Shown here: one piece after another, positions 12,479 through 17,151 of the stretch
Layout: each line of letters starts with the position of its first letter
Position numbering within the stretch: the first letter of the stretch is position 1
IMG/VR virus record: IMGVR_UViG_3300022179_001077
Coordinates: 1-37,052 of that record
Length of the DNA stretch: 37,052 nucleotides
Reading direction: 5' to 3' (one strand)
From: a virus
Lineage: Duplodnaviria; Caudoviricetes
Program-made: the position numbers and the translations under genes
Notes under the pieces: generated by a model
The model's input: only the letters and a program-made list of their open reading frames with translations
Databases searched by the model: none
Told to the model about the DNA's origin: nothing

Positions 12479-12525
12479 TACGAGAAACGCGGACCATGGA
12501 CCTTTGCTATAGAGCAGAGAGAAAA

Positions 12526-12785
12526 TCACAGGGTTGATCACAAGGTTAAATGCCCATTTACCAGTGGTGTCACAGGGTTCACAGGGTTGTTCTAAAATTG
12601 ATCTTTTCCGGCCGCGCGCGCGGTAGGTTGGTAAGTATGTTAGTATATAATATGTTGATATAATGCATAGTTTTAACAACTATCGGCGGACCTGAAACAG
12701 GGTCTGTCACAGGGTTTCAAACAACCCTGTGATCCTTGTGACACCACTGGTACACAAGGGTTTAACCCTGTGATCAACCCTGTGA
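12526..12785. repeat. 66-bp imperfect inverted repeat with TCACAGGGTT iterons flanking an AT-rich core (putative origin)
   Basis: Arms 12526-12591 and 12720-12785, four iterons per arm plus one at 12707-12716, AT-rich core at about 12630-12680. Confidence 0.85.
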
Positions 12786-12836
12786 CATTTTGCTTCCCTT
12801 ATAGTAAAACCATGTGACGGACAGGAGGACTGCCGC

Positions 12837-13433
12837 ATGGCGCGAGCCAAACAAACGCACAAGCCCAAGCTTGATATCTTGGTGAACCCCAAAACGAAGG
12901 GCCTCACGGAGAAGCAGGAAAAGTTCTGCCGGATCTATGCCACCGAGGACGTCACCCGAACGGAGGCGGCCAAGCTTGCTGGGTTCGGAGAGAAGACCGC
13001 TTCGTGGGCCGCATCCCGTTTCTTGAACGGCCGAGACTACCCACACATCGTTGCCCGCATAGCCGAGATCAAGGAAGAGCTGGCCAAGAAGTACGAGGTG
13101 ACCTTTGATGGTCACATCAGGCAGCTTGCCCGCATCCGTGACATGGCTCTGGAGAAGGGCAACTACACCGCAGCGCACGCGGCCGAGAAGAGCCGAGGTC
13201 AGGCGGCCGGGTTGTACATCAGCCGCAGCGAGATCTTGGTCGGCAAGATCGACCAGATGGACCGAGAAGAAGTATTGGCCGAGATCGCCAAGCTTCAGGC
13301 CCAGTTCCCGATCTTGATCGAACAGACCGCCCCGACGCTCGACATGATCGCAAGTAGCCGAGACCCGGATGACCTGCCAGATTTTGTCACCCCTGAAGAG
13401 CGGGCGCGTCTCGAAGCGGAGATCGACGAGTGA
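12837..13433 (+). CDS. terS: Terminase small subunit
   Basis: LTEKQEKFC...TRTEAAKLAGF HTH and AEKSRGQAAGLY, with AGGAGG SD. Confidence 0.8.
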   Translation: MARAKQTHKPKLDILVNPKTKGLTEKQEKFCRIYATEDVTRTEAAKLAGFGEKTASWAASRFLNGRDYPHIVARIAEIKEELAKKYEVTFDGHIRQLARIRDMALEKGNYTAAHAAEKSRGQAAGLYISRSEILVGKIDQMDREEVLAEIAKLQAQFPILIEQTAPTLDMIASSRDPDDLPDFVTPEERARLEAEIDE

Positions 13434-13894
13434 ATACAGAAACTGCGCTTTGGAAACACCTCAAGAAGGAAACGGGCAGAGACGTCCACTGGACCCGCAT
13501 CGAGGCGCGGGTGGGGGCAGGTATCCCCGACATCAACGGAGCCTATCTGTGGCCCGTTTCTGGCCGTCCTAGGGGCATTGAAATCTGGTGCGAGCTGAAG
13601 GTGTGCAAGACCAAGGCCTACAAAACGGCCGGGCTATGGCGGCCAGCTCAAATTGCTTGGCAAACCGCGCGTTCTCAGAAAATGGGAAATGTGTGGAACT
13701 TGGTCAGCCACCCTCAGGCAGAGGTCGTTAAAATATATGGGGGCGACAAGATTCTCAATCTTTGGGAAGATGGAACGGGGGCCACGGAGCCTGATATGGT
13801 AATCAGATACCGCAATCCCTACGATTCGTGGTCCATGTTCCTTGAACTGGCGGCCTCGCGGGCCTTAGATGCAATAGAACCTCGCGGGCCTTAG
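13430..13894 (+). CDS. PD-(D/E)xK nuclease (Holliday-junction resolvase/VRR-NUC-like)
   Basis: E..LW, RIE...GIPD, WCELK, RPAQIAW. Confidence 0.75.
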   Translation: MNTETALWKHLKKETGRDVHWTRIEARVGAGIPDINGAYLWPVSGRPRGIEIWCELKVCKTKAYKTAGLWRPAQIAWQTARSQKMGNVWNLVSHPQAEVVKIYGGDKILNLWEDGTGATEPDMVIRYRNPYDSWSMFLELAASRALDAIEPRGP

Positions 13895-13991
13895 ATCGCG
13901 CGGGCCTTAGATGCAAAGGATCGCGGCTGGTCCGCACAAGAAAAACCCCCGGTCTTTCGACCAGGGGTTGTCGCGCGGGCCTTAGATGCAA
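13857..13991 (+). repeat. Cluster of CGCGGGCCTTAGATGCAA direct repeats (4 copies)
   Basis: 13857-13874, 13883-13896 (truncated), 13899-13916, 13974-13991. Confidence 0.9.
13938..13969 (-). terminator. Rho-independent terminator of the leftward cassette
   Basis: AACCCCTGGTC-GAAA-GACCGGGGGTT followed by TTTCTT. Confidence 0.8.
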
Positions 13992-14008
13992 CTATACGTT
14001 GTCCCCTT

Positions 14009-14278
14009 TCACCTCACCCAGCCTGATTGATAGGCGCGTTTCATTTCATAGACGGCCATCGGGTTAACCCGGTGGCCAAGCTTTAGCGGGCCTTGGAATA
14101 TGAGCCCCAGCAATCGGCCGCGCTCATAATCCCACCGCGTGTTGGTCTGGCCGTGCCCCTGATAGCAGTCGTAATCCATCGGGATCCCGGCGCGGGCCTC
14201 GCGGAAACCGCGCACGAAAGCTGCGGAGCGCATAACGCCCCGCAAGCCCGTGTTTTTGGTGCTGACTTGCTTTGTCAT
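14009..14278 (-). CDS. Hypothetical phage protein
   Basis: GGAGG SD, and F..GF.....G...WDYERGR motif. Confidence 0.65.
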   Translation of the reverse strand: MTKQVSTKNTGLRGVMRSAAFVRGFREARAGIPMDYDCYQGHGQTNTRWDYERGRLLGLIFQGPLKLGHRVNPMAVYEMKRAYQSGWVR

Positions 14279-15284: not shown

Positions 15285-15315
15285 GATGAAAGTATAGCGT
15301 CGACGCGGTTTTTTG

Positions 15316-15426
15316 CGCGGGCCTTTGATGCAATTTAACCGCGGGCCTGCGGCCGCGCGGTCCTTTGATGCAATATAATCCCGGCCGGCCGGCGCGGGCC
15401 TGCGGGGGCGCGGGCCTTAGATGCAA
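15316..15426 (+). repeat. Second cluster of CGCGG(G/T)CCTT(A/T)GATGCAA repeats (3 full, 2 partial)
   Basis: 15316-15333, 15356-15373, 15409-15426, with partial CGCGGGCCTGC at 15340 and 15393. Confidence 0.9.
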
Positions 15427-15441
15427 TAGAACACGACCGGC

Positions 15442-15474
15442 AAAGGAAAAGCCCCCGGACCGAGATCCGGGGGC
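15442..15474 (-). terminator. Rho-independent terminator
   Basis: GCCCCCGGA-TCTCGG-TCCGGGGGC followed by TTTTCCTTT. Confidence 0.85.
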
Positions 15475-15512
15475 TGCGTCGTAAGGGGCCGCGTCGCTGT
15501 AGGCCCGTCATG

Positions 15513-15749
15513 TTATGAGGCCTTGCAGAGGGCCTTTAGTTCGGCCTTCACTCGGCGCGCCGTTTCGCCGCGCCACGTCGTGGCATTGGACAGGAAATAA
15601 AGCACAATGCTTTTCCCGCTGTCGTGAATGTAGTTATCGTCCACGCTGTCGAGCGTGGACATGGCTTGTAAGTAGGGCACGGCACCGAAATAGGGTTTTT
15701 TCCAGTCCCGCGAGATCTCGGCCGCGATAGTGTACAAGGGGCGATTCAT
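15513..15749 (-). CDS. Conserved small phage protein
   Basis: IA.EI..DW...YFGAVPYL.AM...YFLSNA..WRGE.A, with AGAAAGGA SD. Confidence 0.7.
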   Translation of the reverse strand: MNRPLYTIAAEISRDWKKPYFGAVPYLQAMSTLDSVDDNYIHDSGKSIVLYFLSNATTWRGETARRVKAELKALCKAS

Positions 15750-15777
15750 GCTCGGTTCCTTTCTAGTTAACATAGTC

Positions 15778-15816
15778 AATATAGGATAGAACCGTGGCCC
15801 AGTCAAGGGCCACGGT
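15778..15816 (-). promoter_or_regulatory. Sigma70-like promoter with the -35 box in the loop of a perfect 10-bp inverted repeat
   Basis: TTGACT-17nt-TATATT, and ACCGTGGCCC-TTGACT-GGGCCACGGT. Confidence 0.7.
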
Positions 15817-15825
15817 CCAAGTTTC

Positions 15826-16104
15826 TTAGGCTGCGGCGCGCTTTCTCGCGACCACCCGCACCGTCATGATCTCGGTTGTCCGAGTGCACGCGCGAGCTTG
15901 TTCGGCCGTCAAGATTGCGCGGACCGCCTCGGTGTCGAGCGTCGCGCGCTCGGTCCAAGTCACGGTGGCCCTGAATAAGTCGCCGTCAATCTCGGAATAG
16001 CCCGACTCGGTCAAAGCTTTCTTCAGGGCCTTTTCTTGATCCGTCAGGGCCGCAATCTGCGCCTTAAGCGCGCCTAATTGGTCCACAATCGCTGCATAAT
16101 CCAT
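15826..16104 (-). CDS. Small coiled-coil phage protein
   Basis: Start MDYAAI after AGAAAGGA SD, with D.LG.LKAQIA.L...EK.LK. Confidence 0.7.
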   Translation of the reverse strand: MDYAAIVDQLGALKAQIAALTDQEKALKKALTESGYSEIDGDLFRATVTWTERATLDTEAVRAILTAEQARACTRTTEIMTVRVVARKRAAA

Positions 16105-16120
16105 TGGTCTAGTCCTTTCT

Positions 16121-16174
16121 GGTCTCGTCAGCACCCGCCTCACGGGTGGACCGGGCCGGAGCCCGGTTTCGACC
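16121..16174 (-). ncRNA. Type II hammerhead ribozyme
   Basis: GGUC-GAAA-CCGGGC(UCCG)GCCCGG-UC^-CACCCG(UGAGG)CGGGUG-CUGACGA-GACC. Complete core (CUGAnGA, GAAA, GUC) with three perfect stems. Confidence 0.93.
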
Positions 16175-16176
16175 TG

Positions 16177-16401
16177 TTACCACGCCCCGTCGCGCACTTT
16201 GCGCTGCAAGGGCCGCAGGACATAGGAATGTTTCGCCACGTCCGGGTTATTGAACCGTAAGTCTCGCATATACTTGTCGGCCAACACGCGGGTTTCGAAT
16301 CGCACTAGGGCGCGCGTGTTGTGGGGCGGATCAATAACCACGGTCCATTGCGTGTTGTGGAACAAGGGTTCATTTATTTGTTGCTGATGCCACGTTGCCA
16401 T
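16177..16401 (-). CDS. Hypothetical protein
   Basis: AGAAAGGA SD, with a leader identical to that of 15826-16104. Confidence 0.65.
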   Translation of the reverse strand: MATWHQQQINEPLFHNTQWTVVIDPPHNTRALVRFETRVLADKYMRDLRFNNPDVAKHSYVLRPLQRKVRDGAW

Positions 16402-16422
16402 TGGTCTAGTCCTTTCTGGTGG

Positions 16423-16446
16423 GCGCCCGGCCTTTCGACCGGGCGC
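16423..16446 (-). other. GC-rich GAAA-tetraloop hairpin in intergenic leader
   Basis: GCGCCCGGUC-GAAA-GGCCGGGCGC, no U-tract on the sense strand. Confidence 0.7.
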
Positions 16447-16452
16447 GTTTGA

Positions 16453-16821
16453 TTACAGGGTTGCGGTGCCGGTCATGTTGATTTCGATCTCACGGCCGGA
16501 CAGGGCGCTGTCGATTGCGTCCTCTAGGGCGCCGTCGATCAGGTCCCGCACCTTGTCCTCTAGGTCGCTGTCGAGCACGCTGCGCTCCTCTAGTTCGCGC
16601 ACCCGCTCCTCGACCCGGTCAAAGCGCGCGTCAGGCAGACCCGTTGCTGTCAGGTCTTCTAAGACTGACTTGTGATGGACCTGCGTGTTTTCTAAGTAGC
16701 GGATCCGCGCGTCCATGGATTCGATCAGAACCTTTGTCGCCTTCAATTCGTTTTCCAGAGTCGAGATTACATCGACCAGTCCCGCGAACCCGACGACTGC
16801 TTTGCTGAATGCTTCACTCAT
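16453..16821 (-). CDS. Acidic coiled-coil hypothetical protein
   Basis: Start MSEAFS after AGAAAGGA SD. Confidence 0.65.
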   Translation of the reverse strand: MSEAFSKAVVGFAGLVDVISTLENELKATKVLIESMDARIRYLENTQVHHKSVLEDLTATGLPDARFDRVEERVRELEERSVLDSDLEDKVRDLIDGALEDAIDSALSGREIEINMTGTATL

Positions 16822-16868
16822 TTTATGTTCCTTTCTTGAACCCGGTCTCATTGTGAAACCGTGTTTGC

Positions 16869-16897
16869 ACAATAGCATTGACCGACAATATAGTCAA
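16869..16897 (-). promoter_or_regulatory. Sigma70-like promoter heading the early-type cassette
   Basis: TTGACT-17nt-TATTGT with extended TG. Confidence 0.7.
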
Positions 16898-17151
16898 GAA
16901 GAAAAGATATCACGAAAGCGTGATGCTGCACTGCAACATGACGGCCGCGGGTCCCTTGGGGCCGAACGGATCTGAGGCGCGCGGGCCGCGAAACCCCGAC
17001 CCCCCTGCGCGGGGCGCGGTCTACGCGGACCCCCGTAAAACCCGATTTTCCCCGGACAGTGAGCAACATAAAATTGTCCTGACCCCCCAATTTGACAATT
17101 GACGTCAAGGTACCGGGCACCCCATACATAGTAAAAATGCCCTTAGGATCC

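Follow-up and report, generated by a model that had tools for sequence, protein, structure and literature searches.

What a predicted self-cleaving RNA might do when it stands after the stop codon of one small phage gene and ahead of the next ribosome-binding site is the question raised by the locus described here. It lies on the minus strand of a 37,052-nt stretch of DNA (hereafter the window; IMG/VR record IMGVR_UViG_3300022179_001077) that carries genes for primase, helicase, family A polymerase, terminase, portal, GroES and capsid. Why phages carry self-cleaving ribozymes is described as a question still open (PMC6765202). Natural type II hammerheads, with clusters flanking single prophage genes among them, were reported by Perreault et al. 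(2011; PMC3088659), who observed that three tandem arrangements cleaved in vitro and one in E. coli, and proposed the processing of long transcripts into single-gene mRNAs.

Identity and surroundings of the motif

A complete type II hammerhead motif was read from the letters of the window at 16174–16121 on the minus strand, with stems I and III closed and stem II open (Table 1). The earlier note had placed a hammerhead of this type here, and descriptor, folding and covariation confirmed it. CUGAnGA, GAAA and UH all occurred in the correct register, and three stems surrounded the core, with the pairs G10.1–C11.1 and A15.1–U16.1 present. A three-permutation descriptor run over both strands of the window returned this site as its single match; 500 dinucleotide shuffles gave 11 loose matches in total, none with equally long stems. 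A second pattern had one match in the window and none in 100 shuffles. The Rfam model RF02276 (Hammerhead_II), suggested previously as a check, did match the window copy (E 1.3e-4), yet at 35.7 bits the match fell under the cut-off of 37 bits, so a default Rfam scan of the window at cut-off had no matches. This sub-cut-off score is a limit of the model, not a feature of the hammerhead class, and the window copy is a further member of that already described class.

A model of the hammerhead family found no second hammerhead in the window (next best E 0.11), and a weak Twister-P5 match at 16427–16493 (E 0.55) was rejected as another ribozyme. A chance or assembly artefact was also rejected: one further record (L001) is identical over 15700–16900 and another (L002) differs by one base, the records possibly coming from the same population. 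A blastn search with the same interval found no close cultured relative, and one sequencing run examined for expression contained short pieces of relatives only.

The hammerhead sits in a minus-strand run of small genes, presumably early to judge from their layout, in the order promoter, gene A, plain hairpin, gene B, hammerhead, gene C, second promoter, gene D and terminator-like hairpin. The stop codon of gene B ends at 16177, leaving a 2-nt gap to the hammerhead, and AGAAAGGA at 16120–16113 (minus strand) lies directly 3' of it, followed by the ATG of gene C at 16104. These coordinates agree with the gap and the adjoining ribosome-binding site recorded before. The promoter search found four sigma-70-like sites against 1.3 expected, and no promoter-like or minus-strand terminator-like site was found within 16121–16175. 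Genes B and C had no Pfam match and gene B had no PHROG match; in an atlas search with gene B, all matches were below 0.9.

Table 1. Coordinates of the hammerhead, its parts and the surrounding features in the window
Feature	Position	Strand	Remarks
Sigma-70-like promoter	16869..16897	-	TTGACT-17-TATTGT with extended TG; faces away from terminase large subunit gene (17282)
Gene A	16453..16821	-	122 aa, first operon gene, function not assigned
Plain hairpin 3' of gene A	16423..16446	-	10 bp, GAAA loop; directly before gene C in sister phages
297-nt unit	16124..16420	-	ribosome-binding site, gene B, hammerhead; missing at equivalent place in sister phages
23-nt direct repeat, copy 1	16398..16420	-	ribosome-binding site and ATG of gene B
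Gene B	16177..16401	-	74 aa, function not assigned; moves with hammerhead in this clade
A directly 5' of stem II	16175	-	likely partner, by inference, of loop I U in stem I–stem II contact
Type II hammerhead motif, predicted	16121..16174	-	core and topology
Stem II 5' arm, GGUC	16174-16171	-	
GAAA core	16170-16167	-	
Stem III hairpin	16166-16151	-	6 bp plus A15.1–U16.1; pair probability 0.94–1.0 (folding)
U16150, C16149	16150-16149	-	between stem III and predicted cut
Predicted cut	16149/16148	-	
Stem I hairpin	16148-16132	-	6 bp, 5-nt loop UGAGG at 16142-16138
Loop I U	16142	-	position 7 after predicted cut
CUGACGA core	16131-16125	-	
Stem II 3' arm, GACC	16124-16121	-	
23-nt direct repeat, copy 2	16101..16123	-	last three stem II bases, ribosome-binding site and ATG of gene C
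Gene C	15826..16104	-	92 aa, function not assigned; phrog_6244 E 6e-5, phrog_1956 E 3e-4
Second sigma-70-like promoter, candidate	15778..15806	-	between gene C and gene D
Gene D	15513-15749	-	
Terminator-like hairpin 3' of gene D	15450..15475	-	

Relatives of the motif and its predicted fold

With nothing but the core and stem II fixed, the pattern was estimated to occur in ~640 IMG/VR stretches, with at least 124 matches listed, and a narrower form gave at least 123 listed matches. Stems I and III, which the pattern leaves unspecified, formed in 192 of the 200 distinct matches that these two sets listed together, against 0.5 expected from shuffling the inner bases. In 60 aligned copies, chosen from 86 of equal length and pre-filtered for pairing, 13 of 16 pairs changed on both sides, i.e., compensatory stem changes were present among homologues with an invariant core, and the covariation proposed earlier as a check was found. 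Core, topology and covariation support the type II identity of the window copy, and the motif is very probably a genuine hammerhead able to cleave. Bacterial and archaeal genomes contained 111 distinct pattern matches, of which 65 fold; the pattern folds correctly in two archaeal assemblies, a Haloarcula vallismortis contig (L525) and a Methanobacteriaceae assembly (L541).

The window copy resembles the type II hammerheads of Perreault et al. (PMC3088659) in its core, its open stem II permutation, its intergenic place in a phage and the arrays found in related loci, e.g., nine copies, judged by structure, in the contig of L036. Unlike those described there, it has a fixed 6-bp stem I with a 5-nt loop and a 4-bp stem II, falls short of the Rfam cut-off, and is a single copy that is gained, lost or moved among sister phages. 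One copy was present in the 37 kb of this record, which is estimated to be 46% complete, hence no array was seen here. At the Rfam cut-off, no hammerhead match was found in 20 loci including L036, L034, L005, L367 and L510; the family is common yet falls under this cut-off, so standard annotation undercounts it. The last of these loci belongs to the cultured Streptomyces phage Yara (MH019215.1, 52147–57982), which has seven type II hammerhead matches. The five inside this interval each occupy a gap between annotated small genes, a short way ahead of a ribosome-binding site, and have no annotation of their own. Because a cultured phage has seven unannotated matches, function can be tested at the bench.

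Folded in isolation, the 54 nt had the hammerhead as minimum-energy structure, with a stem II probability of about 0.8. With flanking sequence, the predicted probability of stem II fell to 0.06–0.12, because a second GACC, which comes from the repeat and precedes the ATG of gene C, competes for pairing. Low values in context are usual in the family (median 0.22, 40% below 0.1, n = 303), and folding models ignore the hammerhead core. Pairing between loop I and the 3' tail reached 1 bp at most in the window copy, which has no pseudoknot and so differs from the pseudoknotted consensus of Perreault et al. (PMC3088659), where the feature is common, not universal. Across the family, such pairing of at least 4 bp occurred in 18 of 277 copies, against about 12 expected from shuffled tails. 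As stem II is predicted to be mostly open and the pseudoknot is absent, the window copy may be slow.

Flanks were analysed in 306 distinct copies across 429 loci, 277 of them with a 17-nt stem-loop I. A U stood seven bases after the cut in 275 of these 277, and an A just 5' of stem II in 300 of 306, base counts that are biased because 73 of the 306 copies were drawn from a pattern fixing the stem I of the window copy. The conserved U and A fit the U–A contact of minimal fast hammerheads, a trans-Hoogsteen interaction ascribed to O'Rourke, Estell and Scott (2015) in PMC9217987. There, as here, the U is at position seven after the cut and the A is beside a 4-bp stem II; that A, however, is supplied by a GUGA loop, whereas here it comes from the open 5' flank, often from the upstream stop codon, and we infer its equivalence to the tetraloop A. 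Since both positions are nearly invariant, the contact is not demonstrable by covariation. The earlier note had recorded an A flanking stem II; the conserved one lies 5' of the stem and not after it.

Predicted processing of the early transcript

With moderate confidence, and reasoning from sequence, we consider that the hammerhead probably cuts the early transcript after C16149 and splits it into separately protected messages, i.e., acts as an insulator. Transcription would start at the promoter near 16870 and pass through genes A, B and C, and the hammerhead would fold during synthesis, aided by the U(16142)–A(16175) contact. The cut would leave an A–B product whose 3' end is formed by the stem III hairpin and carries a 2',3'-cyclic phosphate, and a C product that opens at once with the stem I hairpin and bears a 5'-OH. 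Such ends withstand 5'-monophosphate-dependent and 3' exonucleolytic decay. Each part would then decay and be translated independently. That the site is unique and non-random favours this explanation by processing, as do the folding and covariation of the family, the place of most copies between a stop codon and a ribosome-binding site, the cleavage observed by Perreault et al. for other copies and the gene orders described below. The score under the Rfam cut-off counts against it. RiboJ-type synthetic insulators and the RNase III sites of T7 are cut upstream of a ribosome-binding site, which gives a defined, hairpin-led 5' end; by analogy, the element here would be a natural counterpart with a predicted 5'-OH end and no need of a protein.

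A related case is HHphage of the haloviruses HF1 and HF2: in an early region, a few bases separate this hammerhead from the start codon that comes after it, and a 5' end was mapped at most 3 nt from the predicted cut (PMC3088659). It differs in being a core variant, in belonging to archaeal viruses and in preceding the first gene of its transcript. Self-cleavage has also been described as promoting translation in eukaryotic RNA viruses, which is a different setting (PMC13725137).

Another reading is a translation-gated switch, in which the terminating ribosome would cover the stem II 5' arm and GAAA, so that cutting would depend on whether and when the upstream gene is translated; the cut would free the next ribosome-binding site, and a core-pairing tail would latch the off or post-cut state in about one-sixth of copies. 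In keeping with this, the stop codon of an ORF of at least 50 aa lay within -1 to +6 nt of stem II in 177 of the 232 copies with enough flank, whereas the antisense strand gave 14 and control sites 3%; these control sites, however, matched the A–G bases and not the intergenic position. Compact phage genomes also place any intergenic element near a stop, and tight packing could explain the distance. A TAG stop overlapped the first G of stem II in 69 of 232, but the required A and G make TAG easy to form. A start codon with a ribosome-binding motif followed within 80 nt in 232 of 289 copies (median 21 nt). The switch would further account for a tail, NUCAG, complementary to the copy's own CUGAN core, present in 48 of 306 copies against 0.5 expected and with its variable base paired in 48 of 48, across 16 sequence clusters; it is possible that this tail forms an alternative hairpin. 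One cluster nevertheless holds 30 of the 48, and the window copy has lost the tail that its closest relatives, L005 and L367, carry. The switch is the main rival to processing, and we regard it as doubtful. Tail-bearing loci include L005 (862–930), L367 (464–530), L020 and L049.

The main text of Perreault et al. is silent on stop codons, on ribosomes and on recombination (PMC3088659). Our literature search found no paper on stop-codon coupling or an insulator role of hammerheads, and none on Streptomyces phage hammerheads or IMG/VR arrays; the packing against stop codons and the core-pairing tail were likewise not found in print, although any of these may have been published. Both features are concrete enough for reporter testing. 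The family's layout, with a stop codon on one side, a ribosome-binding site on the other and frequent arrays, is of a type described in 2011 (PMC3088659), to which accessory movement with gene B is added below.

The 297-nt unit in sister phages

Two identical 23-nt direct repeats, 297 nt apart, and the 297-nt unit associated with them (Table 1) are absent from the earlier note. Relatives of gene C were found at 14 loci, of which two hardly differ from the window. In the other 12, a plain hairpin and never a hammerhead stood directly before gene C. In L003, whose gene C is 90% identical, gene A, hairpin, ribosome-binding site and gene C follow each other with no insert. In L367, which holds the closest relative of gene B (70%), gene B and the hammerhead head the operon 5' of gene A, so that the hammerhead precedes a gene different from gene C; L005 has an unrelated gene X at the operon head, with the same last few codons, and then the hammerhead. 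The gene orders in the clade are thus B–hammerhead–A–C (L367), X–hammerhead–A–C (L005), A–C (L003, L006–L010, L014) and A–B–hammerhead–C (window, L001, L002).

Polycistron processing, put forward in the earlier note as well as in 2011, is still the most likely role, but a service to the following gene in particular has become less likely; for gene C, the 12 relatives and the different downstream gene in L367 speak against it. The plain hairpin of sister phages likely does passively what the hammerhead would do by cutting. This hairpin (window and L003–L014) varies in sequence and retains pairing, with no U-tract on the sense strand, and in the hairpin slot of relatives no other ribozyme class was found at the Rfam cut-off (20 loci).

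No hammerhead was found in 18 other loci reaching early genes D or E among 80 terminase relatives, or with the family model over 79 terminase-relative loci (many of them fragments; L436 was left out, being on the same contig as L001). Patchy as it is across sister phages, either absent or at the operon head, the hammerhead is optional or accessory, and as most sister phages do without it, its benefit would be small or conditional. Gene B as a fixed hammerhead-bearing cassette was rejected, since the 83 gene B loci were mostly without an adjacent hammerhead; among the matches listed for these loci, one came right after gene B in three near-identical records and L367 only, and a further tally agreed. 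In L351 and L374, a hammerhead lies 391 nt downstream of gene B. Relatives of gene B outside this clade had no adjacent hammerhead.

Within the clade, the hammerhead likely travels with the upstream gene B, riding on its 3' end, and its route to the present place was likely ordinary DNA recombination together with gene B, as read from four gene orders and not from a rooted tree. One crossover would fall between the similar ribosome-binding sites and ATGs of genes B and C, and the other at a 4-nt match at the hammerhead 3' end. A parallel is offered by the PeSL cassettes of T4-type phages, consisting of a promoter and a terminator stem-loop (Arbiol et al., 2010; PMC2839356). These are repeated elements among non-essential early genes, and like them the hammerhead is a small regulatory element, situated among early genes and linked to their insertion, loss and shuffling; unlike them, it has no promoter or terminator and is a catalytic RNA motif.

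An alternative is that hammerheads count above all at the DNA level: recombination at their conserved blocks and at the repeated ribosome-binding sites would shuffle small early genes, as with PeSL cassettes, and cutting would be secondary. The precise 297-nt unit between 23-nt repeats would agree with this, as would pairs of copies sharing one flanking gene, in which the hammerhead goes with the upstream gene, goes with the downstream gene or is divided, stem III from stem I, a pattern to be expected where conserved blocks alone tolerate crossovers. Across the family, however, pairing and catalytic core persist while stem sequences diverge, which points to selection on RNA structure and not on DNA identity. 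The repeats here are, moreover, ribosome-binding sites and not hammerheads, and gene B outside the clade, as noted, lacks the neighbour. A second alternative is a selfish or near-neutral hitch-hiker, active or half-active, carried with gene B and useless to the phage; it would fit a single copy that is missing from most relatives and a recent move that created a competing pairing. Core and all stems are, however, intact in the window, L005 and L367, despite divergence of the stem III sequence and of gene B (70% identity). This argues against a useless passenger, as does the fixed sense orientation and spacing held by the family. The hitch-hiker is accordingly judged unlikely, and a role mainly as DNA quite unlikely.

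Mobility through RNA, in which released single-gene RNAs would circularise and be copied back into DNA as for retrozymes, would explain a trio (L215, L226 and L234) that shares stem I and the downstream gene and differs in stem III and the upstream gene, as well as the mirror case of L114 and L135. On average, both stems tracked either flanking gene alike: pairs sharing the upstream gene had values of 0.69 for stem III and 0.70 for stem I, those sharing the downstream gene 0.61 and 0.65, and unrelated pairs 0.48 and 0.50. RNA-level shuffling at the cut site thus had no average support (based on 205 of the 306 copies, with ORF calling having mis-sorted some pairs). Retrozymes and viroid-like RNAs differ from the window unit, which has one hammerhead and is bounded by ribosome-binding-site repeats rather than by cut sites, and Perreault et al. 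detected no spliced or circular products (PMC3088659). Mobility of this kind seems highly improbable.

A wider reading, which is doubtful, would make the family's hammerheads portable, translation-gated punctuation on a stop codon and the next ribosome-binding site, with blocks that double as crossover points. It would include cutting only after the terminating ribosome leaves, tails that in some copies latch the core shut, and the swapping of early genes; these parts are just as doubtful. For transcript processing, the preferred reading, a natural contrast exists between sister phages that share these genes and differ in having a hammerhead or a plain hairpin before gene C.

Several further elements were observed. 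In L064, an unrelated contig, a distant gene C relative (N-terminus, judged by eye) lies 3' of a hammerhead. A CyVA-1 RNA scored above the Rfam cut-off near the terminase gene in two loci (L447:4366–4443 and L450:4406–4484), in a slot different from that of the hammerhead. In the window, the terminase small subunit region (13430–13894 and 12837–13433, plus strand) is ~4 kb from the large subunit, and between the two lies the inverted block of small genes, hammerhead included. Clusters of an ~18-nt repeat starting with TTGCATC on the minus strand occupy 13841–14011 and 15315–15440, downstream of two terminator-like hairpins; they are present too in L005, L008 and L010 and are possibly protein-binding sites. 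At 12503–12808, a non-coding gap between divergent genes holds a large inverted repeat, imperfect (78%, arms of 94 nt) and with short repeats inside it, which could serve as an origin of replication or in packaging.
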